Part shown: positions 10,104 through 62,565 of the stretch, piece by piece | Position numbering within the stretch: the first letter of the stretch is position 1 | Layout of the letters: each line of letters starts with the position of its first letter | IMG/VR virus record: IMGVR_UViG_3300035182_000347 | Span: 5,433 to 69,432 of that record | Strand: one strand, 5' to 3' | From: a virus | DNA length: 64,000 bases | Notes under the pieces: generated by a model | The model's input: only the letters and a program-made list of their open reading frames with translations | What the model was told of the DNA's origin: nothing | The model's database searches: none | Translations under genes and position numbers: made by a program

Positions 10104-10469
10104 ATGCCAGTTTCTGAACTGATTGACGATCTACGCGGCCGGATAAACCCGGTATACGCGTCCCAGCCCGGAACAGAAAGCCATGAGCGCAGGCTGTGTG
10201 CCGAGGCACTGGAGGCGCAGCGCGACAGAATCAACGAACTTGAAGGAGCGATAGGCCGCGGCTACCGAATGCTGCTATCTGAGCCTGACACGAAAGGCGC
10301 TCTATTCAAAACCGAGAACATCCTGCGGGAAGCGCTGGAGCTGGCAGCCAAAAACCTGATCTCCGTCAGAGGCCGGCACCATACCGAGCAGGCGTACAAG
10401 CTGCCGCATGAGGCGGTTGAGAAAGTAGGCACCCTGCCGGAGTCGCAACGTAATGCCAAATCGTCGTGA
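10104..10469 (+). CDS. hypothetical protein
   Basis: GAGG SD, 121 aa. Confidence 0.55.
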   Translation: MPVSELIDDLRGRINPVYASQPGTESHERRLCAEALEAQRDRINELEGAIGRGYRMLLSEPDTKGALFKTENILREALELAAKNLISVRGRHHTEQAYKLPHEAVEKVGTLPESQRNAKSS

Positions 10470-10484
10470 GGATACTGTAGCGCC
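10463..10484 (+). promoter_or_regulatory. putative late promoter (variant GTCGTGAG), leaderless
   Basis: GTCGTGAG-GA-TACTGT-6 nt-ATG(10485). Confidence 0.65.
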
Positions 10485-10988
10485 ATGCCAAAAATAGTTA
10501 GATTCGACAAGGATGAAGCCCTTACCGACTGGAAAACCGGGAAATATACGGTACGCGATCTTGCGTCTAAATATAAGGTTTCACCGGGCACAATCCATAA
10601 GCTCGTTGTCGGAGTAGACAAGTCACTAGCCCCTTTAATAAACAAAGCAGTTGAAATAAAACAAGAACTTACAAATTTTAATGAACGGGAGATAAACAGA
10701 TTTGAACAAGAAGTAAGCGAGCGTACAAAACACATTCAATTCTTCACCAGCGCTAACGCACTGATTGCCAAGACGGTCATCAATAAAGTGCAGGCGGATG
10801 GCGATGAAGCCAGCTATCAGGACTTGAATGCAGCGGCCAATGCCATCACCAAGGCCCAAGAGAATGTTCTGGGCAAGCAGCCGGATAGTGTGGTCAATGT
10901 TGGGGTGACGCAGCGGACGGTGATTCAGTCGGCAGATCGGGTGCGCGAGATTCGACAAAAGCTGATAAGGGACATCTGTGGCGAGTAG
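10485..10988 (+). CDS. terS: terminase small subunit
   Basis: N-terminal HTH (TVRDLASKYKVSPGTI); overlaps terL. Confidence 0.75.
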   Translation: MPKIVRFDKDEALTDWKTGKYTVRDLASKYKVSPGTIHKLVVGVDKSLAPLINKAVEIKQELTNFNEREINRFEQEVSERTKHIQFFTSANALIAKTVINKVQADGDEASYQDLNAAANAITKAQENVLGKQPDSVVNVGVTQRTVIQSADRVREIRQKLIRDICGE

Positions 10989-12534
10989 CCTTTCGGAAGA
11001 GGATGAGATTCTGCGGGTAATGCTGCTGGATGACTTCCAGCTATTCGTCGAGTATTTCTTCCGGGCGCAGTACGGCCGGCGCTTTGTGGTGGCCGAGCAT
11101 CATGCGCAGATTACTGAGGCATTGACGCGGGTGGCGGCCGGAGAGTGCAAGAGGCTGATTATCAATATCCCGCCTCGCGCCGGAAAGACTGAGATTGCCG
11201 TCAAGATGTTCGTCGCTTGGTGCCTGGCGCACAATCCGGCGGCGAAGTTCATCCACCTTTCGTACTCCGATGACCTAGCACTGGACAACTCCAGCTCGAT
11301 TCGGGACGTGGTGAAGTCTGCCGAGTATCAGAAGCTCTTTCCGATTGCGCTCAAGGCTGACTCTGACAGCAAAAAGAAGTGGCTGACCAATGAGGCGGGC
11401 GGCATGTACGCGACGGCGGCAGGGGGCGCGATTACCGGATTCGGAGCGGGATTGATGCACCGAATCAGGACGGGAACGGAATGCGCGGCGGATGGATTTG
11501 GCGGCGGAATTTTAATTGACGACGCCTTGAAGCCAGATGATGCGTACTCGGAAACCGTGCGCGGCCGTGTTAATAATCGCTTCAACAACACCATCGCCAG
11601 CCGGGTGAATAGCCCGGATACGCCGATTGTCGTGGTCATGCAGCGGCTGCACGAAAACGACCTGACCGGCTATCTACTGGCCGGTGGAAGTGGCGAGAAA
11701 TGGGAGCACCTGTGCATTCCGGCGATCAATTCGCATGGTGAGTCAATTTGGCCAGACAAGTGGTCGATTGAACGGCTGCGGCAGATGGAAGCGGCAGACC
11801 CTTATACCTTCGCCGGGCAGTACATGCAGGTGCCGTCGCCACTTGAGGGGGGATTATTCAAGCCTGACAACATCGCCATCATTCTGGTATTGCCGGTTGA
11901 GTCAATCGAATGGGTACGCGGTTGGGACTTCGCCAGCACCACGACGGGCGACTGGACGGCGGGCGTAAAGTTGGGCAGATTGCGCGAGGGCCGATTGATT
12001 ATCGGCGATGTGGTGCGCATTCGCGTGGGTCCGGACGAACGCGATGCCGCGCTACTACATACGGCGGCGCGAGATGGCTATGAGTGCAAGCAATCCATCC
12101 CCCAAGACCCTGGGCAAGCCGGCGTAACGCAGGTCAAGTACCTCTTGCGCCAACTGGCCGGGTACAGCGTCAAGTCAAGCCCGGAGACGGGTAACAAGGT
12201 GGTGCGCGCCGAGCCGGTAGCGAGTCAGGTCAATGTCGGCAACGTGATGATGCTCAAGGCCGAGTGGAATTCGGCGTTGATCAACGAAATGCGCATGTTC
12301 CCCAATGGTACATGGGACGATCAGGTCGACGGTCTGAGCCGGGCGTTCGGTCTGCTGATCGGGCGCAACCCGTCAGAGATATTCATCCCTGACACCAGCA
12401 TCAAGGATGTCATTGCGGCGGCTGGGACGTGTGGGCGGTGCGCGTCATTCGGTGATGGCATGTGTAAAGAGAACTTCGGACTACAGGTAGGCGCATCGGA
12501 TATTGGGTGCGGGATGTTCATTGCGGGGTGGTAG
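10978..12534 (+). CDS. terL: terminase large subunit
   Basis: LIINIPPRAGKT Walker A, ILIDD Walker B, VMQRLHE.D, RGWDFA and DDQVD nuclease motifs. Confidence 0.95.
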   Translation: MASSLSEEDEILRVMLLDDFQLFVEYFFRAQYGRRFVVAEHHAQITEALTRVAAGECKRLIINIPPRAGKTEIAVKMFVAWCLAHNPAAKFIHLSYSDDLALDNSSSIRDVVKSAEYQKLFPIALKADSDSKKKWLTNEAGGMYATAAGGAITGFGAGLMHRIRTGTECAADGFGGGILIDDALKPDDAYSETVRGRVNNRFNNTIASRVNSPDTPIVVVMQRLHENDLTGYLLAGGSGEKWEHLCIPAINSHGESIWPDKWSIERLRQMEAADPYTFAGQYMQVPSPLEGGLFKPDNIAIILVLPVESIEWVRGWDFASTTTGDWTAGVKLGRLREGRLIIGDVVRIRVGPDERDAALLHTAARDGYECKQSIPQDPGQAGVTQVKYLLRQLAGYSVKSSPETGNKVVRAEPVASQVNVGNVMMLKAEWNSALINEMRMFPNGTWDDQVDGLSRAFGLLIGRNPSEIFIPDTSIKDVIAAAGTCGRCASFGDGMCKENFGLQVGASDIGCGMFIAGW

Positions 12535-12540
12535 CAGATA

Positions 12541-12562
12541 GTCGTGACGCCACAATAGACGC
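12541..12562 (+). promoter_or_regulatory. putative late promoter, leaderless
   Basis: GTCGTGAC-GC-CACAAT-6 nt-ATG(12563). Confidence 0.8.
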
Positions 12563-14779
12563 ATGAGCTCAGACCTTACCCATTCAGTCGCCTTTAACCA
12601 TTCCGCGCCACAAGATGAGCGCACCTCTGCGCTTGCAGAGCTGCAGAAGGCGGCCATGCCAACACGCGTCATTTCGGCTGAGGTTGTTGCCAAGATGATT
12701 GAGATGGCTGATATGACCAAAGCCATCAGCCAGAATGTCGTCCCGTTCCCTGGCCCAAACCAAGGAAAGCCGGGTATGCAGTCGATTCGGCTGGATGATC
12801 GGCAGCTTGGCCTGCAAGGTGAGTATTGGGAAAAGCCGGCCGCGATGAGCTTTGATGCTCTGCGCGCCATGGTCGATCAGACGCCCGTCCTGAACGCTGT
12901 GGTGATGACGCGGATACGCCAGGTGCAGCGCTTCTGTCGCGTGCAGGAATCCGGCGAAGGCATGGGCTTCACCATCAGACATGTGGACAAAGACCATCAG
13001 ATCAGCGCTAGCGAAAAAGAATCCATAGGCCTACTGAACAAGTTCATGGCGAATTGCGGCTGGGAGTTCAATGCGCGCAATCGGCGCAAGTTGCGGCGCG
13101 ACAACTTCGGAAACATGATGGGCAAACTGGTGCGGGATTCGCTGGTGCTTGACTCCTGCGCCATCGAGACTGAGTTCAAGCGTAACCGCGATGCCGGCAT
13201 GGATGGTATGGCGGCCATTGATGGCTCAACCATCCGTCTGACGGCAGAAGGCGGCTACAGAGGCAATGAGGATATTTTCGCCGTACAGGTGATTCAGGGG
13301 GCCATTCGTACCGCCTACACCTACGACGACCTGATATACGATCCGCGCAATCCACGATCTGACATCCTGGTGGGCGGCTACGGCCTGGGTGAGACGGAAT
13401 TGCTGGTGCGCGTGGTCACTGGCTTCCTCAATGCCATGACGCACAACATCACAGGATTTGACCGGAACGCTATACCAAAAGGAGTCCTGCATCTGTCTGG
13501 AGACTACACGCAAGATGATCTGGTGGCCTTCAGGCGCTACTGGAACAGCATGGTCAAGGGCACGAATAGTCAGTGGTCGGTGCCGGTGCTCATCAGTAAG
13601 GATCAGGAAAGCAAGGCCAGTTTTGAGAAGTTTGGTGTGGATTACGACGAGATGCATTTCTCGAAGTGGATGACCTTCCTGGCCAGCTTGATATGTGCCA
13701 TCTACGGCATGAGTCCGGCTGAAATCAACTTCGATGCCTTCTCGGGCGGTAATTCATCGCCTCTTAGTGGCTCAGATACCGCCGAAAAGCTGGCCGACTC
13801 GAAAGACAAGGGCCTGCGGCCTCTGCTGAGCTACTTCGAGAATCTATTCACCGACTACGTAGCCAATGACTTCAGCGACAAGTACGTGTTCCGCTGGACC
13901 GGGCTGGATGACAAAGATGTCGAGACCAAGGAAAAGCGCGCCGGCTTGATTTTGACGCTGAACGAAATGCGCGCCCAGGAGGGGTATGACGCAATCGAAG
14001 GCGACCTGGGCGATGCGCCATTGAATCCATCGCTGATTGGCCCATGGCTGCAGATGCAGCAACAAGCCCAGCAACCGGATACCGGAACCCCGCCAGAAGA
14101 CGGGCAAGGCGGCGACGATCCGCCCGAAGGCTTTGGTGGTGGCGATGGTGGCGGCGACTTCGGCCAGAAACCGGATGGCGATGATGATCAAGCTCAGGAC
14201 GGCGCTCCAACCAATGAAGACAGCGAAGAAGAAGCCTTTGGCAAGGCCATCAAGCCGACCGGGAACCCCGGCGTTGGCCTTGATGATGATGTGTTCTTCG
14301 ACCACGACGAGCATGGCCCAACGTCCGGAAAGGTAGTAGCCGTCGGCAAGGACGGATTCACCGTCAATCATGAGCTTACCGGGAAGACCGGTGTGCTGTG
14401 GGACAAGTTCCTAGGCCACAAGAAGCGAGCCGAGCGCAGGCTGATCCCAGTCATGCAAGGCGAGGACGGCATGATTGCCCGCGATGCAGCCACCGGCAAG
14501 CGGACATTCCTTGCTGGCGAACTGCCAGACGACGGGCAAGACGAAGAGATTGTCGGCGAACACATGCAGAAGGCGATGCAGATCATGGCCAGCAGCCAGT
14601 CAGACAAGGTTGATGCCGTGGCGGCGCTGGTTGAACGCATGGCTGAACAGTCACCAGACATTCAGGGTTTGGTTGATGGCCTGGGCGCTGTGATACAGAA
14701 GGCCATGGCCGACTCCGCAAACCAGCACGCCGGGCAACTCTCCGCGCTGGCGATTGCGGTTGAAAAACTAGCTCAGTAA
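12563..14779 (+). CDS. portal protein with long C-terminal extension
   Basis: Follows terL; IDGSTIR, YGLGE.E, PKGVL, SKDKGLRPLL, LTLNEMR resemble Twort/K-type portals. Confidence 0.9.
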   Translation: MSSDLTHSVAFNHSAPQDERTSALAELQKAAMPTRVISAEVVAKMIEMADMTKAISQNVVPFPGPNQGKPGMQSIRLDDRQLGLQGEYWEKPAAMSFDALRAMVDQTPVLNAVVMTRIRQVQRFCRVQESGEGMGFTIRHVDKDHQISASEKESIGLLNKFMANCGWEFNARNRRKLRRDNFGNMMGKLVRDSLVLDSCAIETEFKRNRDAGMDGMAAIDGSTIRLTAEGGYRGNEDIFAVQVIQGAIRTAYTYDDLIYDPRNPRSDILVGGYGLGETELLVRVVTGFLNAMTHNITGFDRNAIPKGVLHLSGDYTQDDLVAFRRYWNSMVKGTNSQWSVPVLISKDQESKASFEKFGVDYDEMHFSKWMTFLASLICAIYGMSPAEINFDAFSGGNSSPLSGSDTAEKLADSKDKGLRPLLSYFENLFTDYVANDFSDKYVFRWTGLDDKDVETKEKRAGLILTLNEMRAQEGYDAIEGDLGDAPLNPSLIGPWLQMQQQAQQPDTGTPPEDGQGGDDPPEGFGGGDGGGDFGQKPDGDDDQAQDGAPTNEDSEEEAFGKAIKPTGNPGVGLDDDVFFDHDEHGPTSGKVVAVGKDGFTVNHELTGKTGVLWDKFLGHKKRAERRLIPVMQGEDGMIARDAATGKRTFLAGELPDDGQDEEIVGEHMQKAMQIMASSQSDKVDAVAALVERMAEQSPDIQGLVDGLGAVIQKAMADSANQHAGQLSALAIAVEKLAQ

Positions 14780-14870
14780 GAGCCTTCTGGCGACGGAATA
14801 GTGAAGGCTTTCGCGGCGGAGATTAAAAACGCAAACACCTTAAACGCAGCAATCAAAAAGGAGTAAAGAC

Positions 14871-15254: not shown

Positions 15255-15271
15255 TCTCAGCTGACAACGCC

Positions 15272-19012: not shown

Positions 19013-19034
19013 GTCGTGACGCCACACTAGGCGC
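19013..19034 (+). promoter_or_regulatory. putative late promoter, leaderless
   Basis: GTCGTGAC-GC-CACACT-6 nt-ATG(19035). Confidence 0.8.
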
Positions 19035-20150
19035 ATGTGCGAAAACCACGATGCCCTACTGAAAGCCAAGCCACCAGACGATCACGACATCTGGGGGCCG
19101 CATGAGTCCCCCTTTATTCGCGACCTGATCGAGCGCTGGACAAGCGACGGGCTGGAGCGATTCGGCCAGACAAGCGCAGAATTGCTGTTGTGGGTAGCGG
19201 GCAAGATGCACAAGCCTGGCCCGTCTGTAATTCGTCCCGGACCCATGCTGCGCTGGTCGGCTGAAGACCTGGCCAGAGTCAAGCAATTCCTTGAGGCATT
19301 GCCGCCTGAAGCCTTTACCATCAATGAATGGATGCTGGTAGTCGACTATCTGTTCCAGCGCTACCTGCCAGCCGACGCCATGATGCAAGAATCGCAATGG
19401 CAGATTGCGCGAGCCTCAATGATGGGGCGCGTGCAATCGAACATTGCCGCCATGTCTGCCGCCTCTGCTGCGCATATTGCCATGACGATTCCGGCCAGCG
19501 TGCCAGATATTGAGACGCAATTCGGCATCAGCGAGATACAGAGAGCCGCGATTGAGTTCGGTCAGGCGCGGTGCGCGCAGTACGTAACCAACGTCACCGA
19601 CGGTCTTCGCGGCCGCATCAAGCTGGCCATTACTGACTGGCAGGAGCAAAAGTTCCTCGGCACGCCATCAAAAATTGCCAAGCAAGACCTGCAATCCAAG
19701 CTGCTGGATCAGTTCGGCGAGGCCAATCGAGACTGGCGAAGGATCGCCATCACGGAAGCCGGCGAAGCGGCGAATCAGGGGTTCATCGGGGCGCAACCGT
19801 TCGGGACGCAGGTCAAGCGGATTGAGCAGTACCGGGGTGTATGCCCGTTTTGCGCCTCTATCGACGGCAAAATCTATACCGTGGTATCGCCAGATAAGCA
19901 CGACAAAGATGGCGATACCGAGGTCTGGGCGGGAAAGAACAACATCGGCCGATCAGCGGCACAGCGCAAGCGCACGGCGGATGGCTGGGTGAATCGAGTA
20001 AAGAATGAAATGCTGTGGGCTCCGGCAGGGCTTGCGCATCCGCATTGTCGCGGGCGCTGGGTTCGAGTCAATCTTCCCACACTCCCGATTGATGCTGAAT
20101 TATCTAGTTGGCTACGACAACAAACTGAAGCGAGAAAAAAGAATGGCTGA
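19035..20150 (+). CDS. MuF/SPP1 gp7-like head morphogenesis protein
   Basis: RDWRRIAITE, CPFC...DGK, HPHCRG. Confidence 0.85.
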   Translation: MCENHDALLKAKPPDDHDIWGPHESPFIRDLIERWTSDGLERFGQTSAELLLWVAGKMHKPGPSVIRPGPMLRWSAEDLARVKQFLEALPPEAFTINEWMLVVDYLFQRYLPADAMMQESQWQIARASMMGRVQSNIAAMSAASAAHIAMTIPASVPDIETQFGISEIQRAAIEFGQARCAQYVTNVTDGLRGRIKLAITDWQEQKFLGTPSKIAKQDLQSKLLDQFGEANRDWRRIAITEAGEAANQGFIGAQPFGTQVKRIEQYRGVCPFCASIDGKIYTVVSPDKHDKDGDTEVWAGKNNIGRSAAQRKRTADGWVNRVKNEMLWAPAGLAHPHCRGRWVRVNLPTLPIDAELSSWLRQQTEARKKNG

Positions 20151-23229: not shown

Positions 23230-23245
23230 GTCGTGACTGCATCAT
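23230..23245 (+). promoter_or_regulatory. putative late promoter
   Basis: GTCGTGAC-TG-CATCAT upstream of 23273. Confidence 0.7.
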
Positions 23246-23272
23246 CGCGTAAACCCACTCTGCGATGCCGTC

Positions 23273-32212: not shown

Positions 32213-32234
32213 GTCGTGACGAGATCATGGCGTG
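32213..32234 (+). promoter_or_regulatory. putative late promoter, leaderless
   Basis: GTCGTGAC-GA-GATCAT-6 nt-ATG(32235). Confidence 0.75.
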
Positions 32235-35200
32235 ATGGAAAAGATCATTCTGCTCATCAAGGCGCAACCAACGCCAGCACAGGCCGAGGCCGGCAACTAC
32301 AAAAAGCGCAAACTCGCATGGCGCGGCCTGACCATCTCAATTGAGAATGAGGCCGGCAGCGTCCGCAAGGGCGTCGGCTGGCGGACGAAGATGCTGTACC
32401 CATACGGGTACATCAACCGCACCGAAGGAAGCGACGGTGATCAAATCGACGTTTATATCGGGCCGGATGAGGCTGCCGATACCGTCTATGTGGTGCATCA
32501 GCGCAAGTATGGCGACTGGGGCAGGTACGACGAGGACAAGTGCATGCTCAATTTCTCGTCAGAGTCGGCGGCGCGCGCAGCCTATCTGAAGCACTACGAT
32601 GATCCGCGCTTCCTTGGGCCGATTACCGCCATCCCGGTGGATGAGTTTGTCGATAAATCGCTGGCGGCAAACGGGCGGATGGTGAAGTCCATTACCCTGA
32701 TTTTCCCCAATGGCAATCGGCATCTAGTTGCTGGTGGTGATTGGGCATTCGATAACACCCTCGCCAAATCCGATCTTTCTCCTGGGCAGCGTTGGATAAC
32801 TGTTCATTCACACTCACACGGTGAAGGCAAGGGTACGCCCGTCCTAGTGCAAGAGGTTCCGCACAGCCCAGGCGTATATCACGTCATTGGCGGTGCTGGC
32901 GGCAAGCTCAACATGCTCAAGATGACCGGCATCAAGCCACAATCAAGCTACAAGGAGCATTTGGCAAAGAAAGCCAAGGAGAAAGCTGATCAGAAAAAGA
33001 AGCTGCGCGAACGCGACAAGGAGATGGGCATCGAGAAGGGCAAAGGCAAGGCGCGCGAAGCTGTCATGTCGCAAAAGCATGAGGCGCAAAAGGGATTCAT
33101 CAAGAAAGTGGCCGAGAAAATGGGCTGGAAGGATGAAGACCTTGCGCCCAATATACCGGCGAACGTCTCCGATGTGACGCGCAACAAGCTCGAAGCGAAG
33201 CACCATAGCGAATTGTTGAGAAAGGCGCACCAGGCGGTTGATTTGCAGCGGCAGAATCTGCTGACTGATGTGGTGGCGCGGCAGGAGGCCGGCATTGCAC
33301 CAGAGCCCAATGAGCACGACGATTCGACGCTTTCCACAGCGGACCTTGACGACACGCGGCCACAAGCGAAATCCGGGCTGGGCTTTTCCGCCCACTACGC
33401 CGAGCGCGCCGAAGCGCAAGGGGCAACGCAGGAAGTCATCCAGAAGGAAGCCGACGAAAAGAAAGCCGCTCGGCAGGCCATGCTGACCGATGGCCAACGC
33501 TCAGACATCAAGCATCGCGGCACGGTGCAGGCCCAGATCAAGGAAGAAATCAAGGCCATTCGCGAGCCCGTCACGAAAGACGTAAAAGCCGTGCTAGCTG
33601 ACGCCAAGAGCGCGGTGGAATTGCTCAAAGCGCAGAATCAACTCAAGGCCATTGAGAAGTCGGCCGGCGCTGCCATGAAGGACATTGACGAAGCGAAAGA
33701 AGTCAAAGCCTACAACCTGGAAGTGTCGGCACCGGATGATGCCTCAATCGAAGAGGGCATCGAAAACGACCTGCGCACCATTCGCACCAAAGCCTTCCTT
33801 TCAGCCATCGATAAAGAATTCGATGATCCAGAAAAGCAGATTCGTCAACATGTCGGCGCGGGCGCGTTCAACTCGGTCAACTCTCTCGCCATCACCAAGG
33901 GCGGCGCGGCGCTGGTAGATCGCTCCGTGGTCGATGTGCTCGGTATAAGTGGTGCAGCTCAGGTATTAGTGCGGCGGCTGTATGCTGACTTGCCGGCCGA
34001 CGAGATGGAAAAGCTCGTGGGCGAAATGGAGGATTACCATCTACATCACTACATGGAAACCTCGCAAGACGCGCTCAAGGAAGCGAAAGACCTGCATGAT
34101 GCTGCAAAGGAAATTCAGCTTGGCGAAGCGTCGCATGGCGATGATTTCGAGGCGGCGCGGGAGATCGGCGCACGGCGTAAGGCTTGTATCGAGCAAGCTC
34201 ATCAGATACTTGGGACTGCGCTGGGTGAAATGGAGGCCAATGCCGCGCTGGTAGTCGCCCTCAAGGGCGGGCGCAACGACAATCCGCTGGAAGTGCCGCT
34301 TGGCAAGATAGCCGACGAAGATGCAATTCGCCAGGCACGCGCCATCGGCCTGCAACGCGGCGACTACAGCATCACCAAGATCGCCGGCAATCAGGTATTG
34401 ACCGTGACACCGGGGGGTATGGACCGCCTTGCAAAGCCGGTCGACAAGGCCGAATTGGAGCGCACGCGCAACACGCTGGACATCATCAACGGCGGGCAGG
34501 ATGAAGACGACTGGCTACCCATGGGATTCTCGAACCGGCCAGACTTGGCGCTTGACCTGAAACCGGGCGTGGCCGCGACATTGGCGCAACCCTTCGCGCC
34601 ATCGGCCGACCTGGAACAGTCGCTGCGCGACTACATCGGCGGGCGCACGGCCGACGGCGATTCTCCGAGTGACATCGTGGCCGATATTCAGTCATCGGAT
34701 TTTTTCGACAAGGCCGGCAACAACGAAGCCTACCGGGCGGCGCTGGATGCGGTGGCACCACTCAAGGGCAAAGACGGCAAGATGGCGCGCGCCGAATCAC
34801 TGGCCGACGCCTTCAACCAGTACGCCGATACCTTTGTCGGAGGCAAGGCTTCAACCTTGCAGCGTCAGAACTTTACCCCTGACGCAGTGGCGCAAGATGC
34901 ACTGCATCGCGCTCTCGCAGACGAGCCAGCCGGAGTCGTCGCCTACAAGCCCATTGGAGAGCTGTCGCACGACGATCAGGCAGTCTTGCGCAAGTATTTT
35001 TACGCCAATGTAGCTCACGAAAGCCCGGAAGCGGCCAACTTGCGCGAGCGTCTTGAGACCATTGGCGCGCACGAACCAGAAAAAGAGTCGGTCGATATGT
35101 TTGGCGACACGACGATCAATCAGGAATGGTACGACTGGAAAGCGCAACGCGATACGCTGGCCGAAGAGGTCAATAGCGCCTCGCTGAACTGGCAGAAGTA

Positions 35201-37272: not shown

Positions 37273-37294
37273 ATCGTGACGGCACAATAGGCAA
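37273..37294 (+). promoter_or_regulatory. putative late promoter, leaderless
   Basis: ATCGTGAC-GG-CACAAT-6 nt-ATG(37295). Confidence 0.75.
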
Positions 37295-39622
37295 ATGCCT
37301 ACCTACACACATGACCGCATGCCGGCGCTGCTGGCCTACTACGGCGACAAGCTCAAGCCCAAGGACAAATCGCCGCTGACATTCATGAAAGCGCACTTTG
37401 GTATTGCGGATGATCCGCTGGTGAAGGCCGTCGACAAGAAAGACACGCATACCTTGTCGATGTTTGGCCCGAATGATTCTGTGCAATACCAGGTGCGCAG
37501 TGACGGGCGCGGGCAGCGCTATCACCATACGATCAAGCAAGAGGATGAGCAGTCCGGCGAGGATGTGGGCGACGGGGAATCGAGCAAGGATGGACGCATT
37601 ACCGAAAAGACCGGATTGTTTGACGGAGAAACGATTACCGACGCAAAAGGCTTGCCATATCGAGTGCATTATCAGCGCAAAAGCCTGATTATTGCGCATC
37701 CGATTATCAACGGAAAGGCGCAAGTCAATAGAGATACCGCCATCCGATTCTGGGTTGACGCTGCGCGCATCCCGGCCGGAGAAAATGATAGGACTGATCC
37801 GGTCTATCGCGCCAATGAATTCATCAAATCACCGTCTGGCGCGGCGGGCTTTGTAGGCTCAACTCCTGATGCCGGTGAATTGGCCCCCATGGTTAGCCAA
37901 CAGAGTGATTCAACTATAGCCCAGCCAGCACCCGAAGGTAATGTCGTCAAAAAGTTTGGGGCGCGCGAAGAAAGCGACCAAGACAGGTCGTGGCGCGAGT
38001 GGGAGGAAAACTACGCGAAAGTCAGCGGCGCAGCCGACCTAACTACGCTCGACACAAAATCAATCGAGCGCGCGCTTGGCTATGGCGAATCGTTTGTGCA
38101 GCGCGAAAAACGGAAGGGGTGGGATGGTGGTGCGGTAAATTTTGACCTGATACGATCTATCGAAGTTGATCTTTACGCATTCAAGAGCGAACTCAAGGCG
38201 CGCGGTCTATACAAATCCTTCCCCCTCATCCTCTTCACCAAAGGCGGCAAGCCCGGCGCTCCAGGCCTGTACGAACGCGCCATCACCGGCAAGGACGGCA
38301 TCAAGCGCATCCATTGGATGAAGTTGCCGGGCGGCACAAAGACGGCGCATAATGACGCACAGGCTGAACTGTTCAATCCAGATGGAACACCGTACCAATC
38401 ACTTGAGACTCGCCGAGGCACCACCGACAAGCAACGGCACGTCGGCATGGATGCCCTCGCGGCGCTTAAGCGACGGGTCAATCTTCTACGGGATAATCGA
38501 GGATCGGCCGCCACCCTACTTGGTGCTCGTCTCTACGCCGGATTCGTCGCGTCAGGCGGGAATCAACTCACCGGCCAGAAGATAACCTCTCCCGCCGATC
38601 TGGCCGCGCTGGCGCAGGTCTATCGTGATCCGCGCTTCGAGACATTCCGCTGCATCTACCTGAAGGACAACGAGGTCGTCGGCGAAACCGCTTATTCATC
38701 GCGCCTGCCGGGTGCGGTTCTCATGCCGGAAGATTACAAGCGGCTTATTAAAAACGACAAGCAGCGCTTTGGGGCTAATGGGTATTACATACTGCACAAT
38801 CACCCGAGCGGGGAGTCGCGGCCATCGAAGGCCGATGAACAACTGACGGTCGACCTGAACGCGGCGGTATCGGGAATGCGGGCGCACGTCATCATTGACC
38901 ACAACGAGTATTCCGTAATCGAGAAAGGCGGCGCGGTACGCACGCATCAAGCGCCCGAGCTATCCGGCACGGACTATCACGCCACGCCATCAATCGACCA
39001 TCCACTGCTAGGCACAAAGCTCGGATCGCCAAAAGACGTTGCACTGGCCGCTAAGACGCTGCAACAGGAACTGAAGGCCGGCGCTCCGGTGCTGATCATG
39101 ACCAAGGGCTACCATTCGGAAGTCGATTTGATCGCGTCTGCCCCGCTATCACTAATGATGCAGAAAACAAGTCGCGTCAAGGCGTGGCTACGCGGCACTG
39201 GCCGTGCAGCAGGAGCCAGTGCCTATGCCTTCCTGGTCGTATCAAATTCCGACTACCAATCTCATTATGCTGCCTTGTCCAGTCTCATTGAGGATGGGAT
39301 TGTGACTGATGTTGTTTCGGAAAGCGGTATGTCCACTCGCGAGAAAAGGCCGCTAATGATCATCAATGACGATGTTTTCAGGCCGAGAAAGGCCGGCCGC
39401 AAGGTCGCCGAGCCGCAATGGCTTGAGGATGATCTGGTCGCGCAAGAACGCTACCTGACCGACGGCGCGAAGGCGCTGGGTTATGCCACGATAGACGATA
39501 TGGCCGTTGCCGACTACTCGGCATTCGAGCGTTTGGCGATGGATTGGCGCGCTGAACATCAGATAGAGGATGCGCTATATCAGCCGGCATCTGGATACAA
39601 TCAAGACGGGAAAAAGCCATGA
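37295..39622 (+). CDS. polyvalent protein with RadC-like JAB domain
   Basis: ITSPADLA...RDPRFETF...LHNHPSG...PSKAD...HVII. Confidence 0.85.
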   Translation: MPTYTHDRMPALLAYYGDKLKPKDKSPLTFMKAHFGIADDPLVKAVDKKDTHTLSMFGPNDSVQYQVRSDGRGQRYHHTIKQEDEQSGEDVGDGESSKDGRITEKTGLFDGETITDAKGLPYRVHYQRKSLIIAHPIINGKAQVNRDTAIRFWVDAARIPAGENDRTDPVYRANEFIKSPSGAAGFVGSTPDAGELAPMVSQQSDSTIAQPAPEGNVVKKFGAREESDQDRSWREWEENYAKVSGAADLTTLDTKSIERALGYGESFVQREKRKGWDGGAVNFDLIRSIEVDLYAFKSELKARGLYKSFPLILFTKGGKPGAPGLYERAITGKDGIKRIHWMKLPGGTKTAHNDAQAELFNPDGTPYQSLETRRGTTDKQRHVGMDALAALKRRVNLLRDNRGSAATLLGARLYAGFVASGGNQLTGQKITSPADLAALAQVYRDPRFETFRCIYLKDNEVVGETAYSSRLPGAVLMPEDYKRLIKNDKQRFGANGYYILHNHPSGESRPSKADEQLTVDLNAAVSGMRAHVIIDHNEYSVIEKGGAVRTHQAPELSGTDYHATPSIDHPLLGTKLGSPKDVALAAKTLQQELKAGAPVLIMTKGYHSEVDLIASAPLSLMMQKTSRVKAWLRGTGRAAGASAYAFLVVSNSDYQSHYAALSSLIEDGIVTDVVSESGMSTREKRPLMIINDDVFRPRKAGRKVAEPQWLEDDLVAQERYLTDGAKALGYATIDDMAVADYSAFERLAMDWRAEHQIEDALYQPASGYNQDGKKP

Positions 39623-39861
39623 GCCACGAACAGGCCACCGCCGAACTGCGCAAGCGCATTGGCCAAACAACCGCCCTCCTGCACCAATGCAAGGCGCAAG
39701 ATTGGGCGATTACCGAAGGCGCTACCAACAGGGCAAGGCAAGTCGAATCCCGTCTCGCGGAACTGCGTAGGACGGCGATTACCGATCCTGCTGCCGCCAA
39801 CGAGTATATGGAGCTGACAAAGGAGAAGGGCGCGCTGCTGCGCACACTGGCGAAGTCGTGA
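39619..39861 (+). CDS. hypothetical protein
   Basis: ATGA-coupled; ends LAKS*. Confidence 0.65.
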   Translation: MSHEQATAELRKRIGQTTALLHQCKAQDWAITEGATNRARQVESRLAELRRTAITDPAAANEYMELTKEKGALLRTLAKS

Positions 39862-39870
39862 CGCCATCCT
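39855..39870 (+). promoter_or_regulatory. putative late promoter (leadered)
   Basis: GTCGTGAC-GC-CATCCT; AAGGA SD before ATG 39910. Confidence 0.7.
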
Positions 39871-39909
39871 GTTTCCAGTCAACTACTTCCCCCATTAAAG
39901 GATTCAATT

Positions 39910-40274: not shown

Positions 40275-40297
40275 GTCGTGACGCCACACTCTCGGAC
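40275..40297 (+). promoter_or_regulatory. putative late promoter, leaderless or 1-nt leader
   Basis: GTCGTGAC-GC-CACACT-7 nt-ATG(40298). Confidence 0.8.
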
Positions 40298-41182
40298 ATG
40301 ATTACCGACGATCAACTACTGGCCACACTGCCCGATTTCGTGCGCTTTGACACGATGATGAAGGCCCGCCCTGCGACCGAGGGAGACGAGCGCCTTGTCT
40401 ATGTCGAAGCCTCCACCGAGGCACGCGACCAAGAAGGCGAAGTCGTTCTGTCGAAAGCACTGAAGGATTCGCTCGACGTATTTATGAAGTTCGGCGTAGT
40501 CGACCTGGATCACAAGTCCATGCCGTCGGTCGCGCAGAAATATGGCATCCCGCAAGAGGATTGCCCGAAGTGGATCGTTGGTCAACCGGTGGCAGTGCGT
40601 TTTGACGGTGACAAGACACTGGTCAAGGCCAGGCTCCGGCAAGGCGATACCCCGCTGGCCGCGCAAGCCAATCAGATTTGGGATGGGCTCACCAAGCTCA
40701 ATCCGCCAGATCGATACTACGCGTCGGTGGGTGGATCAGTCCTAGCGCGAGAGATTCGCATTGATCCAACGACAAAAGATCGCATCCCCGTCATCACCAA
40801 GACGCGATGGAACAATCTGGCCCTGAGCCTGCAGCCGGTTAATCAACACCTGGATGCCGCATCTACGGTGCCGATTGGCACCTTCGCCAAAGCCTTTGGT
40901 GGATTCGTGCTGAAGGCCCTTGAAGCCGGCTACGCTACGGACGCATCAGCCATGACTGGCGGGCAAGCGCTGTCCATGCAGTCGCTGGACCGCGGCATTG
41001 CCAGCTACTTTGATTTCCGCGAGCGCATCTCGGCGGATATTCGCGCCGGTAAAGTTGGTCGTGACGTTACAAAGTACGCCATGACTTCGTATGGCCTTTC
41101 TGCTGACAAAGCATCCACTTGGGCAGAGAAATTCCTGCAAGACATTACCCGTTCGTCGGCCAAAAACCGGCGTCTCACATAG
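40298..41182 (+). CDS. prohead protease
   Basis: ASTEARDQEGEVV, DLDH, SVGG, ALS.QPVN; position before scaffold and MCP. Confidence 0.8.
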   Translation: MITDDQLLATLPDFVRFDTMMKARPATEGDERLVYVEASTEARDQEGEVVLSKALKDSLDVFMKFGVVDLDHKSMPSVAQKYGIPQEDCPKWIVGQPVAVRFDGDKTLVKARLRQGDTPLAAQANQIWDGLTKLNPPDRYYASVGGSVLAREIRIDPTTKDRIPVITKTRWNNLALSLQPVNQHLDAASTVPIGTFAKAFGGFVLKALEAGYATDASAMTGGQALSMQSLDRGIASYFDFRERISADIRAGKVGRDVTKYAMTSYGLSADKASTWAEKFLQDITRSSAKNRRLT

Positions 41183-43720: not shown

Positions 43721-43742
43721 GTCGTGACGCCATAATCAAGCC
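43721..43742 (+). promoter_or_regulatory. putative late promoter, leaderless
   Basis: GTCGTGAC-GC-CATAAT-6 nt-ATG(43743). Confidence 0.85.
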
Positions 43743-44624
43743 ATGAAGCCAATCATCCTACTCATCAAGGCCATCGATAAACGCGATACGCACACGGGCA
43801 GCCTGTTTGACGAGCGCGTTGAAACGCATACGCGCAAGGATGGCGTGGTGCAGCGGTACCACGTCAGCGCCGTCCCGCAGATCGTCACTGTGGCGCGAAT
43901 TAACACCATTCACGACAAGCGGCAGCTGGTAGACAAGCGCGACATGCTGCGTGACTTTTTGAGCACCAAGCCGGAGTCGCCGAACGCCGATAGTTGGCGC
44001 AAGCAGATTGCAGAAATTGACGCGCAGATTAGCCCGCACGCTGACCCGAAGAAAGAGTCTGCCAAGAAGCAAACCCCGGATATGTCCGGCTGGAGCGAAC
44101 ACCAGCAGGCCGCCTACGGTCTGCGCAAGGAGTACGAAGACACATTCATGTACGCGAGCCCGAAGGAGCTGGGTGAGTTCAAGCGGAAAATCCGGCGCGT
44201 AGCGAAGACCATCCCAGAGAGCGATGAGAGGGCCGTTACGCAGGTCGACCTACTGGTCACGCGCGTATGGGGTGCCGACTTCGATCCAAGGCGGGCCGAC
44301 GTTGAATTCGCCAAACCAGCCAATCAATCGCTTCCAGCACCAGAAGGAAGTCACTCTGCCGCCGTCCCGCCAGCGCCGACTTATGACGCTGCGACAATGG
44401 AAAGCATGATCGCCGTAGCCGCTGACTCATTGGCGAAGCTACGCAAGGTCGATGTATTTCGGGTGCTCGAAAGCAACAGCCGCAACACGCAACTCGCAAG
44501 GTACATCGCCGCAAACCGTCAAGACTTGGCTATTGAGGTCAGAGAAGTCATGGAAGACGAATTTGGCATCAAGGACTGGATGACCAAATCCATGCGATTC
44601 CGAATCATCCAGAGGAACCCATGA
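43743..44624 (+). CDS. putative virion-internal protein
   Basis: IILLIKA leader; HTRKDGVVQRYH motif. Confidence 0.7.
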   Translation: MKPIILLIKAIDKRDTHTGSLFDERVETHTRKDGVVQRYHVSAVPQIVTVARINTIHDKRQLVDKRDMLRDFLSTKPESPNADSWRKQIAEIDAQISPHADPKKESAKKQTPDMSGWSEHQQAAYGLRKEYEDTFMYASPKELGEFKRKIRRVAKTIPESDERAVTQVDLLVTRVWGADFDPRRADVEFAKPANQSLPAPEGSHSAAVPPAPTYDAATMESMIAVAADSLAKLRKVDVFRVLESNSRNTQLARYIAANRQDLAIEVREVMEDEFGIKDWMTKSMRFRIIQRNP

Positions 44625-46798: not shown

Positions 46799-46814
46799 GT
46801 CGTGACTTCAGAAT
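46799..46814 (+). promoter_or_regulatory. putative late promoter for the lysis cluster
   Basis: GTCGTGAC-TT-CAGAAT. Confidence 0.7.
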
Positions 46815-46832
46815 ACAGTCAAACCACAAATC

Positions 46833-49255: not shown

Positions 49256-50076
49256 TCACTTTCGCCATCCCGCTTCCTGTAGGCAATGCCAACAAGATCA
49301 TTCTTGCGCCGATTGCCGGGGCGACGAAATGGAAACTGCTACGCAAAAGCGAGGACACCTTTACCGGCCACGACGATTCGGGCGCGCTGCTGGTGCATGA
49401 AGGCACAGAAATCTATTTTCTCGATACTGCCTCAATTGCCAATGGTCAGGCGTACTACTACCGCGCTTATTACCTGATAGGGGCAACATGGATCGCCTCT
49501 GCGACAGTCAGCGTTACGCCGGCCTGCACCTTTGTTGGCGCGATGGATGTGATGAACACCTTGCGCGACCGATTGGATTCCGGATTGCGGTCGCTGCTCG
49601 CCAGAAACATCGTCGCGCATCCAAAGGGACATATCCCTGTCCTGCTTGCGCCGCCCGCGCTGGAAGATTCGACCTTCCCAGTCGTGACGCTACATTTGAC
49701 TTCGGAAACATCGTCCGATCACTTCATTGGCGACTTGCTGGGTCGGGATGTCAGGCTGGATAACGGCGATTGGCAAGAAGGAAGCGGATGGTGGCAGCGC
49801 GTGCAGGTATCCATTGTCGGCTGGAGTCAAAACCCCGACGAACGCGCCATGTTGCGGATTGCCGTCCGCGATGTGGTGCTGGCCAACCTGGAAGTGTTTG
49901 CCGCCGTAGGGATGATGCAGATCGAGTTTAGCCAGCAGCAGATTGAGGATTTCGCGAGTTACGGTGCCCCGATGTACGAAGCCATGGGAAACCTGACCTG
50001 CACCACACCAGTAATGGTGACATCGACGGTCAATCCGATTGGCGATGTGACCATAACGCAAGGCGTTACGAACTAA
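49252..50076 (+). CDS. tail terminator/neck protein
   Basis: Upstream of sheath; FPVVTLHL, WSQNPDER. Confidence 0.6.
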   Translation: MITFAIPLPVGNANKIILAPIAGATKWKLLRKSEDTFTGHDDSGALLVHEGTEIYFLDTASIANGQAYYYRAYYLIGATWIASATVSVTPACTFVGAMDVMNTLRDRLDSGLRSLLARNIVAHPKGHIPVLLAPPALEDSTFPVVTLHLTSETSSDHFIGDLLGRDVRLDNGDWQEGSGWWQRVQVSIVGWSQNPDERAMLRIAVRDVVLANLEVFAAVGMMQIEFSQQQIEDFASYGAPMYEAMGNLTCTTPVMVTSTVNPIGDVTITQGVTN

Positions 50077-52195: not shown

Positions 52196-52211
52196 GTCGT
52201 GACGCCATGAT
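52196..52211 (+). promoter_or_regulatory. putative late promoter (leadered)
   Basis: GTCGTGAC-GC-CATGAT; GGAGG SD before 52241. Confidence 0.75.
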
Positions 52212-52240
52212 AGCCCAATCTACCCCACGGAGGCTCCATC

Positions 52241-58465: not shown

Positions 58466-58487
58466 GTCGTGACGTTATCGTCAGCGC
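58466..58487 (+). promoter_or_regulatory. putative late promoter, leaderless
   Basis: GTCGTGAC-GT-TATCGT-6 nt-ATG(58488). Confidence 0.8.
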
Positions 58488-59651
58488 ATGGCTACCCAAA
58501 GCAATCCAGACAAGCTAGGTGCAAAAGAGCGCCCTATCGCCTTTGTTCTGCACGACACTAATCCTGGCGGCAGGCCAACAAAGGTGCAGCTCTGGGTGCG
58601 CCCAGAAGACTTGTCGATTACCTCGCCGTCACGCATGGCCATCACGAATACCTTTGGACAGGATGGAGGCTGGGCCGATAGCTTTGGAGAAGGCGTCAAG
58701 ACCATCACGCTATCAGGCATTACTGGATGGGGCGGTCCGCGTACCAACGGTGGATCAGACGATGGCTATCAGCACTTTGTTGATCTACACAATACCGTGT
58801 TTCGTTCATGGCACGCCCTGCGGGACGCGGCGGCGCGACTTGGAAATGACCCGGACAAGGTAAAACTCATCCTGGCCGATGGGTTGGACCAGTTGACATG
58901 GGTCGTGGCTCCGCAGAACTTCGTGCTCAAGCGCAATAAGTCACGCCCGTTGATGGTGCAGTACAACATCACCATGCACCGCATCGCCGATGGAATTGAA
59001 GAGTTGGCAGCGGCAGGGCCGGACATTGAGGAAAAGAAGGCGGCGGCCATCAAAAGCCTGGAAAACACAGTGAATGATTTGGACAATGCCGCAACGGCCA
59101 TCGCTAAAGCGGCCTCTGCGGCGCTAGCCACTTTCAAAGAAGGGTTGGTGAGTTTTGTAAAGATGACGGCAAACCTTCTGCGCAAGGTGGTGGCTGGCGT
59201 CAAGTCATTGACTGGGGCCGTTGGCGGCGTATTTGGTGACCTCATCGTAATTGCGAAAGACATCGCCCGCGCCGGAATGAACATCGCACACACCATCGCC
59301 GCAGTGATGACCTTGCCGGCGCAGATCAAGAACGAGTTCTCCAAGTTGGCGAGCGCCTACTCGAACATGATGTGCGTGCTGAAAAATGTTTTTCGCAAGC
59401 GCCGCTACTTGCCTCAGTACGACATCAACGGCAGCGGAAACTGCGCTTCTACGGCAGGTGGCAGCGGCATTTCGCCCTACGTTTCGGAGAACACATTTTC
59501 AGCCGTGCTCAAGTCGGATAAGGCGCTTGTTTCAGTCACCAAGCTGGCGTCGGAATCCATTGCACAAACAGGGAAGCTAGACCCGCTGGTTGCGCCGATT
59601 GAAAGCATTCTGCGCACTCCAGGCCTGATTGCCAGCGGGGTGAGTATCTGA
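58488..59651 (+). CDS. baseplate/tube-initiator-like protein
   Basis: RPEDL, W.DSFG.G...ITLSG.TG, RPL..QY.I. Confidence 0.65.
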   Translation: MATQSNPDKLGAKERPIAFVLHDTNPGGRPTKVQLWVRPEDLSITSPSRMAITNTFGQDGGWADSFGEGVKTITLSGITGWGGPRTNGGSDDGYQHFVDLHNTVFRSWHALRDAAARLGNDPDKVKLILADGLDQLTWVVAPQNFVLKRNKSRPLMVQYNITMHRIADGIEELAAAGPDIEEKKAAAIKSLENTVNDLDNAATAIAKAASAALATFKEGLVSFVKMTANLLRKVVAGVKSLTGAVGGVFGDLIVIAKDIARAGMNIAHTIAAVMTLPAQIKNEFSKLASAYSNMMCVLKNVFRKRRYLPQYDINGSGNCASTAGGSGISPYVSENTFSAVLKSDKALVSVTKLASESIAQTGKLDPLVAPIESILRTPGLIASGVSI

Positions 59652-61365: not shown

Positions 61366-61366
61366 T

Positions 61367-62545
61367 ATGCGCCTGACAGACAAACTTTTGGGGTATCTGC
61401 ACGGAGTTTTTAACAAAACTCCTGCGGAGTTCGTTGCCTTCCGAGCGCGCCACTTTTCAGATGCGTTCCGATATGTCGTGAGCGACTTTGTGCTGGAATG
61501 TTTTGATGGTGATGTCTCGCTATTTACTGCAAACCTGAACAATTACACCCTGTTAGGTCTGGCTGAATTTATTGGAAATCAGTCGGGCATGTCAGTTAGC
61601 TATCACGGCGATGACGTAACGCGCACGCTATCTGCCCGCGTGTTGCTAGAAAGATCGTCGGCACAAATAGACTCCAATGGCGACCAATTTATCGCCTACT
61701 CATCTCTGCTTTGGAGTTATCTCGATAGCGTTGGAGAAAGTCTTGCGACCGCTCGATTCGACATAGTTTCAGCACTGGATCAGATGTCAATCAAAACTGC
61801 CGACGATGATTGGCTTGATGAGTGGGGCGGCTACTTCGGCATACCACGAATATCCGCAGAAACTGACACCAGTTACGCCAATCGGATTGTCATCGAAATA
61901 ATGCGTCCGCGTGGCAACAATAAAGCCATTGAGATGGCATTGCTTGAGAGTTTTGGTCAAGAAGCGTCAGTGATTGACTTGGAAAAACGATTAATCACCG
62001 AAAGGACTTACAACGGCAGCAGCCTGCACAATGGGCTGATAAATCATGATGCTACCGACGATCCATTTTACGGATTGTTCGCCGTTGCAATTGGGTACGA
62101 TATTGAGGCTGGGGGTGACCTTCTGGAATACGCTGGTCGCGTGCGTCAATTTATTGAACAATTCCGTGACGCCGGTACGCACATGGAGAGCCTTCGCCTG
62201 TCGGAATCAGTATTGAATGACAGCTACCCAGGAACCATGGTTGATGCCGGTTATTCGGCAGTTGTTGAGCTGATTGGCTGGCGCGGGTCTGATCGCTCAT
62301 ACGATGGATCCCGTTACTACGACGGAAGTTTCAGCCATGATTCAACCGTATTCGGCGACTATTGCGACCCATCCCAAGATAGTGATTTCACTTCGGATGC
62401 ATCGCTCACATTGAGTGACACAAGCGATGCGGCGCTTGATGATGGATCGCTTGATATTACCTACACCACAACCTATGGCGGGCTGCGCTACTACAGCGGA
62501 ATGGTTCAGTATCAGAGTGGGAACACCGTATCAATGACGCTGTAG
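61367..62545 (+). CDS. baseplate wedge (gpI-like) protein
   Basis: WLDEWG.YFGIPR...ETD..Y..RI; YDGS repeats. Confidence 0.75.
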   Translation: MRLTDKLLGYLHGVFNKTPAEFVAFRARHFSDAFRYVVSDFVLECFDGDVSLFTANLNNYTLLGLAEFIGNQSGMSVSYHGDDVTRTLSARVLLERSSAQIDSNGDQFIAYSSLLWSYLDSVGESLATARFDIVSALDQMSIKTADDDWLDEWGGYFGIPRISAETDTSYANRIVIEIMRPRGNNKAIEMALLESFGQEASVIDLEKRLITERTYNGSSLHNGLINHDATDDPFYGLFAVAIGYDIEAGGDLLEYAGRVRQFIEQFRDAGTHMESLRLSESVLNDSYPGTMVDAGYSAVVELIGWRGSDRSYDGSRYYDGSFSHDSTVFGDYCDPSQDSDFTSDASLTLSDTSDAALDDGSLDITYTTTYGGLRYYSGMVQYQSGNTVSMTL

Positions 62546-62549
62546 GCCG

Positions 62550-62565
62550 GTCGTGACGATAGCCT
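62550..62565 (+). promoter_or_regulatory. putative late promoter (leadered)
   Basis: GTCGTGAC-GA-TAGCCT upstream of 62595. Confidence 0.7.

Follow-up and report, generated by a model that had tools for sequence, protein, structure and literature searches.

In the virion gene region of an uncultured virus (IMG/VR record IMGVR_UViG_3300035182_000347), a repeated 8-mer, GTCGTGAC, lies 2 nucleotides (nt) upstream of a hexamer resembling a sigma70 -10 element. The stretch analyzed here, referred to as the window, comprises 64,000 nt and covers bases 5433-69432 of one 69,432-bp virus contig. Fifteen copies of the motif probably form a single class of promoters for virion (late) genes, which lack a -35 element and combine a sigma70-type -10 with a box bound by a factor. 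From the geometry of the sequence, it is very likely that the copies act as promoters with a transcription start 22-23 nt from the first base of the box. It is also likely that the box is served by a phage factor rather than by the bare host enzyme. Late timing is read from gene content.

The window contains 14 exact copies of the 8-mer GTCGTGAC (13 on the + strand, one on the - strand), compared to an expectation of 1.51 (standard deviation 1.32, largest 6), and none of 100 shuffles reached 14. Two further + strand copies with one mismatch, at 10463 (GTCGTGAG) and 37273 (ATCGTGAC), bring the + strand total to 15. A hexamer of the form NANNNT begins 2 nt past the 8-mer in 14 of these 15 sites, with A at its second position in all 15 and T at its sixth in 14; the - strand copy at 50132 has no hexamer. 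The base following the 8-mer is G in 13/15 sites, and the base at offset 22, counted from the first base of the motif, is A in 12/15. ATG occupies offset 22 at 10463, 12541, 19013, 32213, 37273, 43721 and 58466, and offset 23 at 40275. Offset 23 is an ATG at 41058 as well, where it opens just the last 33 codons of the protease frame. Upstream of the box, no position in the 15 sites carries more than 0.5 bits of information. A weight matrix derived from 69 sites in seven other genomes, with the present genome left out, picks exactly the 15 sites, all on the + strand with scores of 14.6-28.7, while the next best score in the 69-kb contig is 8.7. Contig bases 1-15894, the 15.9-kb non-structural part, contain no copy.

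These counts can be compared with the original prediction, which listed 13 copies followed by a hexamer with invariant A2 and T6, with ATG at offset 22 in seven cases and 23 in one. All 13 coordinates are real (11 exact, two with one mismatch), and the hexamer and ATG spacing were found as described. Two exact intragenic copies, at 41058 and 49681, had been missed, so that the claim that the motif is always at gene junctions is correct for the 13 sites but not for these two, which lie inside open reading frames (ORFs). Placement after terminators, said to be frequent, is clear for 40275 and 43721 and marginal for 37273, but does not extend to the rest of the 15. Shine-Dalgarno (SD) sequences had been assigned to the copies with a longer spacing to ATG; GGAGG is present before 52241 and weak AGGA and AAGG before 39910 and 62595, respectively, but none is present before 23273 or 46833. 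The gene labels "TerS" for 10485, which has only a weak TerS match (E 0.003), and "MuF" for 19035, which has no PHROG match, were not confirmed.

The motif is conserved within a family of phages. A relative of the portal was found in 30 viral contigs, and the box with its hexamer is present in 15 of the 18 loci whose portal identity is 52-81%, typically directly upstream of the portal and between flanks that cannot be aligned, compared to none of the 12 loci whose portal is at most 32% identical. The pattern GTCGTGAC-N3-A-N3-T is found 33 times in five whole related records, in every case on the gene strand, and a reversed control pattern occurs once. With C or T allowed at box position 8, five cultured phages (of Bordetella, E. 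coli, Aeromonas, Yersinia and Pseudomonas syringae) contain 47 matches on the gene strand versus 1 on the opposite strand and 0 for the control, and the Pseudomonas putida phage Dolphis contains 12 versus 0. Cultured members of the family, with genomes of approximately 86-95 kb, include Pseudomonas phages Dolphis, Jeremy and Touem01, Bordetella phage PHB04, Escherichia phage ECML-606-1, Enterobacter phage phiT5282EW, Aeromonas phage ST4, Yersinia phage fHe-Yen8-01 and Morganella phage Mecenats66. A near-identity search of a phage collection with the contig returned a single match, a 600-bp portal stretch of Dolphis. Comparison with relatives, which the original prediction had suggested, showed that the motif, its 2-nt spacing, A2/T6, the ATG peak at offset 22 and a C/A pair at the predicted start (-1/+1) are all conserved despite diverged flanks.

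Pooled sites from eight genomes (this contig, two complete uncultured relatives, Dolphis, PHB04, ECML-606-1, ST4 and fHe-Yen8-01) define the geometry of the element. The gene strand has 81 matches to GTCGTGAY-N2-NANNNT and the opposite strand has one. Of the 91 8-mers on the gene strand, 81 combine A at +11 with T at +15 (chance 4.4%), compared to 1 of 11 on the opposite strand. ATG is found at offset 22 in 29 of the 81 sites, at 23 in 7 and at 24 in 3, where 1.46 would be expected per offset, and each of the offsets 16-21 and 25-30 has 0-2 sites. An ATG at the offset peak opens an ORF of at least 60 codons at 33/81 sites. At offsets 22-23, the codon opening such an ORF is ATG in 32 cases and GTG, TTG or CTG in none. 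Leaderless initiation requires a 5' AUG, a rule which fits this restriction to ATG. The preference for A at offset 22 persists where a leader is present (25 of 48 sites; background 22%). Numbered from the predicted start, the 81 sites have C at -1 in 46, A at +1 in 51, A at -8 in 48, C at -12 in 47 and G at -14 in 55; at -15, 54 sites have C and 27 have T, and the TG at -18/-17 within the box is invariant. The hexamer consensus in the family is CAyaaT. Positions -62 to -23 all carry at most 0.13 bits, which indicates that there is no -35 element. The late region is not enriched for consensus sigma70 promoters either, with 12 found and 11.0 expected. Annotators of the Dolphis GenBank record had independently placed five gene starts exactly on motif-linked ATGs (4551, 6470, 8005, 84125 and 1), the genes being portal, gp6, protease, gp117 and terminase.

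In the -10 element of sigma70-type promoters, the two bases that flip out are A(-11) and T(-7), and transcription usually starts 7 nt past the hexamer. The invariant A and T four bases apart, the C/A pair seven bases further on and the intergenic and post-terminator placement together match the -10 and start-site geometry of the sigma70 family. The proposed mechanism would be as follows. The -10 element (C/T)A-N3-T, with A(-11) and T(-7) essentially invariant, would be read by a host holoenzyme of the sigma70 family, and the box GTCGTGAY(G) at -22 to -14 would replace the -35, a phage-encoded DNA-binding factor supplying the -35-type contact. Transcription would start 7 nt, sometimes 8 nt, past the hexamer, and at eight copies in the window this would be the A of ATG. 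Leaderless messages without an SD are thus predicted for the gene in the TerS position, the portal, the 371-aa (amino acid) head protein, two large virion proteins, the protease, the 293-aa protein and the baseplate protein. The peak of ATG at the predicted +1, the restriction to ATG and the recurrence at the same orthologues make transcripts beginning with AUG the best explanation. A leaderless cistron has to lie at the 5' end of its message to be read, so that a separate promoter is required for every gene of this kind; this may explain the high copy number of the motif.

Individual sites in the window, all on the + strand, differ in hexamer, score and distance to the next gene. Those with the predicted +1 on the A of an ATG at offset 22 are GTCGTGAG-ga-TACTGT at 10463..10485 (score 14.7; ATG 10485 of a 167-aa protein upstream of TerL), GTCGTGAC-gc-CACAAT at 12541..12563 (28.7; ATG 12563, portal), the copy with CACACT at 19013..19035 (27.8; ATG 19035, a conserved 371-aa head-module protein), the copy with GATCAT at 32213..32235 (22.7; ATG 32235, a 1678-aa helicase-like virion protein), ATCGTGAC-gg-CACAAT at 37273..37295 (17.5; ATG 37295, 775 aa), the copy with CATAAT at 43721..43743 (27.6; ATG 43743, 293 aa) and the copy with TATCGT at 58466..58488 (19.4; ATG 58488, a 387-aa baseplate-module protein). 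At 32213 there is an in-frame GTG at offset 19 besides the ATG at 22. The site at 43721 begins 3 nt past a terminator-like hairpin with a T run, and the protease promoter at 40275..40298 (CACACT; 23.6), with ATG 40298 at offset 23, begins 5 nt past a terminator-like hairpin. Leaders are predicted at 23230..23252 (CATCAT; 22.6), where 21 nt separate +1 A 23252 from ATG 23273 of the DarB-like gene with no clear SD; at 39855..39877 (CATCCT; 22.7), where +1 A 39877 would give a 33-nt leader with the weak AGGA to ATG 39910 (102 aa); at 46799..46821 (CAGAAT; 23.8), where +1 A 46821 is followed by a 12-nt leader without SD to ATG 46833 (152 aa); at 52196..52218 (CATGAT; 25.8), where the 23-nt leader from +1 A 52218 to ATG 52241 of the tail tube-like gene (141 aa) contains GGAGG; and at 62550..62572 (TAGCCT; 14.6), where a 23-nt leader with the weak AAGG links +1 A 62572 to ATG 62595 (148 aa). 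Two copies are internal to genes. A weak copy at 41058..41081 (TACAAA, without T6; 16.4) lies inside the protease ORF and may serve an ORF from 41091, and one at 49681..49703 (TACATT; 15.4) lies inside the ORF 49252-50076 and may drive 50081-50326 and the sheath gene at 50341-52056. The TGA within the box is the stop codon of the upstream ORF at 10463 (ORF 10104-10469) and at 39855 (ORF 39619-39861), and at these two sites the gene end, promoter and next start are compressed into approximately 25 nt.

The same genes recur as leaderless across the eight genomes. Leaderless geometry is found for the portal in 5/8, the protease in 6/8, the baseplate gene in 5/8 and the 371-aa head protein in 4, as well as for the 1678-aa helicase-like protein in 4/4 genomes having the gene. 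The adaptor-like gene is leaderless in 7/8 genomes; the exception is this window, where the upstream gene overlaps it and where it is presumably coupled to that gene. None of the eight genomes has a dedicated promoter for capsid, scaffold, sheath or tape measure; where the tube gene (2 genomes) or p148 (4 genomes) is preceded by one, there is always a leader. The original prediction had proposed that leaderless translation sets low-copy proteins apart from abundant ones; the pattern recurs across the eight genomes but remains a correlation. In ECML-606-1 (site 60478) and fHe-Yen8-01 (site 3726), the ATG at offset 22 of the protease promoter begins a leaderless frame of just three codons, ATG TTT TGA, and the protease starts 13 nt past the TGA stop, 44 nt from the motif start. 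A ten-codon leaderless frame at G001:2230 overlaps the start of the next gene. Such leaderless mini-ORFs could pass ribosomes to the following gene. In Dolphis (MT711888.1), gp15 (14482) and gp25 (23748) are annotated 162 and 60 nt downstream of the in-frame offset-22 ATG of the motifs at 14320 and 23688, respectively. The longer, leaderless versions of gp15 and gp25 align with their orthologues, and the annotated starts are therefore probably too short. The same record has an annotated MazE/MazF pair at 76195-76744; it has been both claimed and disputed that MazF favors the translation of leaderless mRNAs.

Several known systems resemble this promoter class in part. Phage P1 is the closest known system by architecture, and the Thermus phage Lalka27a is the closest by descent. 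P1 has 11 dispersed late promoters composed of a -10 hexamer and a box bound by Lpa (PMC10695390). The likeness consists of a -10 hexamer without a -35, a conserved short box upstream (annotated in GenBank as a "-22 region") and service to morphogenesis and packaging genes, and this phage shares with P1 a DarB-like giant virion protein. The P1 box, however, is a 9-bp inverted repeat (AAGTNACTT-like; ATGTGACTT at LPpac and AAGTTACTT at LPhot) located 4 or 9 nt from the hexamer, whereas the box here is GTCGTGAY, an imperfect palindrome always 2 nt from the hexamer. P1 pacA has a 35-nt leader, whereas approximately 40% of the copies here abut ATG. Because the boxes differ in sequence, symmetry and spacing, the P1 analogy is one of architecture only. 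GTGAC, common to the box here and to P1 LPpac, was considered as a link and set aside as probably coincidental, as it lies 2 nt from the hexamer here and 6 nt in LPpac. BLASTP against all ORFs of the eight genomes gave no Lpa homologue (best E 0.23), and the complete relatives are without one too. The P1 parallel drawn in the original prediction consequently stands for the -10, the missing -35 and a box near -22, but not for the box sequence, its spacing or an Lpa-like activator. P1 late promoters of the Lpa type depend on host SspA.

The capsid of Lalka27a is 33% identical, which indicates a distantly related structural module. Thermus uses leaderless mRNAs routinely, and the hosts here are Proteobacteria. 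For Lalka27a, a 2026 preprint describes 16 putative late promoters that have no -35 but a TAGGGT -10 and a conserved C at -25. Their transcripts are mostly leaderless, with starts 6 bp past the -10 that are supported by small-RNA sequencing for half of them; its authors infer a phage factor that changes the specificity of the host polymerase and cite YS40 alongside (bioRxiv 10.64898/2026.04.20.719267). The elements differ in that the Lalka27a motif is TAGGGT with C at -25, whereas GTCGTGAY is found here beside CAyaaT and nothing is conserved at -25.

Extended -10 (TGn) promoters of sigma70 are likewise independent of a -35, have extra conserved bases upstream of the hexamer and share the common G at -14. 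In contrast to these, the element here has no TG at -15/-14, the TG of the box being 3 bp out of register, and its eight conserved bases reach -22, while the known reach of sigma region 3.0 ends well short of this. Leaderless phage mRNAs known in Proteobacteria include lambda cI transcribed from PRM and P2 gene V, in which AUG is at the transcription start and no SD is present. These are single genes, whereas a whole promoter class is involved here, with eight genes in the window and 33 of the 81 promoters in eight genomes. Late transcription in T4 uses the gp55 sigma, the gp33 co-activator and the sliding clamp. T4 resembles the present system in having -10-only promoters, and two small candidate proteins, Zn1 and Zn2 (described below), would be available here, a clamp-binding-like tail being present in 22/50 Zn1 homologues. 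The T4 -10 differs (TATAAATA, with no upstream box), no link in sequence or predicted fold was found between Zn1/Zn2 and gp55/gp33, and modeling supports clamp binding weakly.

Zn1 was obtained from a search for the protein that reads the box. The non-structural genes present in all seven complete family genomes are SSB, a methyltransferase domain and Zn1, with no others. Zn1 is a Cys-rich double-zinc protein of approximately 170 aa with eight invariant cysteines and a conserved CVSCYNRERE...GRNAKG segment; Zn2 is a zinc-ribbon protein of approximately 100 aa that adjoins Zn1 in 6/7 complete genomes. Zn1 matches no family in Pfam or PHROG and falls into unnamed clusters only in the protein atlas. 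Its AlphaFold model (pLDDT 86) is a zinc-rich alpha/beta protein for which Foldseek found nothing in the PDB at E <0.8 and VIA-align nothing above Z 2.7 over 48,161 chains. Zn1 is present in 11/13 motif-bearing records, the two without it being fragments (this contig and a record 24% complete), and in 0/5 motif-less distant relatives, all of which are fragments (39-79% complete). The 434 kb surrounding 27 bacterial Zn1 homologues in alpha-, beta- and gamma-proteobacteria contain 31 motif matches compared to approximately 1 expected, and Zn2 directly follows Zn1 in 15/27 of these loci. One Cupriavidus locus contains two boxes back to back, and the start of the Zn1 gene lies at offset 22 of one of them. 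No Zn1 homologue was found in Thermus phages by tblastn.

Zn1, possibly with Zn2, is the best candidate activator from these associations, and its identification as the factor is tentative, with the chances somewhat against it. It could equally be a replication protein. A clamp-binding-like C-terminal tail, Qxx[LIMV][FWLY], is present in 22/50 Zn1 homologues and the stricter form Qx[DSREGK]L[FW] in 18/50. A predicted complex of Zn1 with the Pseudomonas aeruginosa beta clamp scored 0.46 compared to 0.01 for the best control (contact agreement between runs at least 59%, partner pLDDT at least 73); it was not counted as evidence, as passes at 0.60 or below are more often wrong than right unless likely beforehand and solved clamp-peptide complexes may be remembered by the model.

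Other candidates were sought in the contig. When 26 of its early-region and small ORFs were scanned against PHROG and Pfam, no sigma and no known late activator appeared, and SSB is the sole early protein of the contig that is common to relatives. A 128-aa Cys-rich ORF at 7304-7690 was rejected as a relative of Zn1 (hhalign probability 0.3%). Upstream of the window, contig bases 3919-4470 encode a 183-aa protein with a helix-turn-helix and an RNA polymerase alpha C-terminal domain (PF03118, 26.4 bits, cut-off 23.8), which could be a phage-encoded mimic of that domain or a transcription factor. It is absent from the four relatives searched and thus cannot be a family-wide factor. The activator-dependent leaderless late regulon of the original prediction accordingly has comparative support for its promoter and leaderless geometry, but no activator was found in this contig.

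It can also be proposed that the whole 16-bp element is read by an unrecognised sigma-like factor or an RNA polymerase of the phage, not by host sigma70 with an activator. With the box directly adjoining the -10 and a frequent G at -14 (55/81), the two look like one extended element, and C is most frequent at -12 where sigma70 prefers T, which leaves room for a different, unrecognised phage sigma. Very divergent phage sigmas such as T4 gp55 (approximately 185 aa) escape Pfam, and Zn1 and Zn2 are small proteins without a known fold or family. Six-frame searches, which very divergent sigmas would escape, gave a best score of 12.1 bits, in a structural gene, for sigma70 region 2 (PF04542, cut-off 24; this contig, the two complete relatives, G003 and G004) and of 12.2 bits for region 4 (PF04545, cut-off 24.1; this contig, the two complete relatives, Dolphis and ECML-606-1). 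T7-type polymerase (PF00940) had no match in five records, but the controls were silent as well, so that this search shows little. A start 7 nt past a hexamer in which A(-11) and T(-7) are invariant is standard geometry for the sigma70 family, and the predicted model of Zn1, zinc-rich and alpha/beta, appears unlike sigma region 2. A sigma-like factor or phage polymerase is thus regarded as quite improbable.

Two further explanations are considered far less probable still. In one, the motif works as RNA, either as a processing site or as a translation signal on read-through transcripts, and cleavage makes the AUG 5' ends. Strand bias and a fixed distance to ATG would also fit an RNA element, and motif-bearing read-through RNA probably exists as there are few terminators between the late genes. 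The conserved bases, however, match a -10 element (A2/T6) with C(-1)/A(+1); 48/81 sites have the start codon 10-40 nt further on, some with an SD such as the GGAGG of the tube gene; some copies directly follow terminators, where little upstream RNA arrives; and GTCGTGAC alone forms no stable hairpin and is unlike an SD. In the other, to which a similarly slight probability is given, the phages make use of a host regulon, the box being recognised by a host factor (alternative sigma or regulator). Two observations speak for this: phages of alpha-, beta- and gamma-proteobacteria with hardly any early genes in common carry an invariant box, and Zn1 is absent from this contig. In five bacterial genomes, though, matches outside Zn1-linked regions are no commoner than those of the reversed-pattern control, and the box is unlike the consensus of sigma54, sigma32, sigma28, sigmaE and sigmaS promoters. 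The Microvirga genome (4.9 Mb) has 11 co-oriented matches in 63 kb of prophage beside a Zn1 gene and 9 scattered elsewhere, with 3 for the control. The box is phage-specific, and host genomes make no use of it.

Several observations count against a sigma70-type -10 with a phage-factor-bound box and leaderless starts. In addition to the C at -12 (47/81) mentioned above, the copies at 41058 and 49681 sit inside genes. The enterobacterial members are leaderless at 1/9 and 1/7 promoters, which suggests that the leaderless design is not obligatory and that its proportion may depend on the host. A Zn1 profile search of all six frames of this contig, which is 75% complete, found none, and as all motif-bearing phages are related, shared ancestry confounds the association of Zn1 with the motif. 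The 10 sequencing runs listed as containing the contig (metagenomes) are all DNA, with no RNA run listed for window positions 10400-20300, and start sites, timing and the leaderless state are inferred from geometry. A promoter class with a sigma70-type -10 and a factor-bound box is nevertheless the reading preferred here. Its most far-reaching form would be a family-wide late-transcription system of myophages and prophages of approximately 85-95 kb in alpha-, beta- and gamma-proteobacteria, in which Zn1 (with Zn2) would bind GTCGTGAY at -22 to -15 and replace -35 recognition, a QxxLF clamp tether in approximately half of the lineages would couple late transcription to replication as in T4, and a deliberate leaderless regulon would serve low-copy virion proteins. 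This combination is speculative and unlikely to hold in all its parts.

The contig has 56% G+C, is classed as linear and has a completeness estimate of 75%. All recognisable genes past approximately 10,500 in the window are on the + strand and belong to a myovirus virion module. These include the large terminase (10978-12534), portal (12563-14779), head maturation protease (40298-41182), major head protein (41794-43341), sheath (50341-52056), the 141-aa tail tube-like protein (52241-52666) and baseplate-module proteins. Two giant ORFs lie within the head module, a 2456-aa DarB-like methyltransferase (methylase)/helicase at 23273-30643 and the 1678-aa helicase-like protein at 32235-37271, whose residues 1-140 match minor-head and virion-protein families. 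Both proteins are probably packaged and injected, as in P1. Non-virion genes of the window encode a PAPS-reductase-like protein (2533-3303), a Dam-like methyltransferase (4483-4989), a pentapeptide-repeat protein (5235-5984), SSB (6770-7198), a phrog_4433 protein of 273 aa with short serial repeats (9195-10016) and an HD-domain protein (22623-23201), the last of which sits within the head module. A conserved 263-aa gene at 45992-46783 is on the + strand here and its orthologues in 7/7 relatives are opposite to the virion genes, which represents a local inversion. At window positions 63430-64000, the final 100 bases of the contig are repeated 471 nt upstream, with duplicate one-mismatch motif rows at 63454 and 63925. 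The contig end falls within a direct repeat of the tail-fibre region, and this may explain why assembly stopped at approximately 75% completeness.

Leaderless mRNAs are uncommon in Proteobacteria. The promoter class described here is new in its box and probably in its factor, and it probably represents a leaderless design carried into Proteobacteria. A literature search, with subscription journals and supplements outside its coverage, returned no description of the motif or of transcription in this family. The words "promoter", "leaderless" and "motif" are absent from the Mecenats66 genome paper, and among the matches listed for papers containing GTCGTGAC as a text string, none is on phage promoters.

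The motif can serve as a precise annotation tool for the family and its prophages, as it marks late promoters and fixes start codons such as those of Dolphis gp15 and gp25. Several members are in culture, which makes the motif directly testable. The two zinc proteins without a known fold are a candidate for a new type of activator and, together with the compact 16-bp promoter, would provide a useful orthogonal expression module if confirmed. The family also offers a natural set of dozens of leaderless messages for essential virion proteins in phages of Pseudomonas, Bordetella, Aeromonas and, more rarely, E. coli. It could thereby serve as a tractable system in which to ask how leaderless messages are translated in Proteobacteria, why this occurs, and how virion protein ratios are set by a phage.

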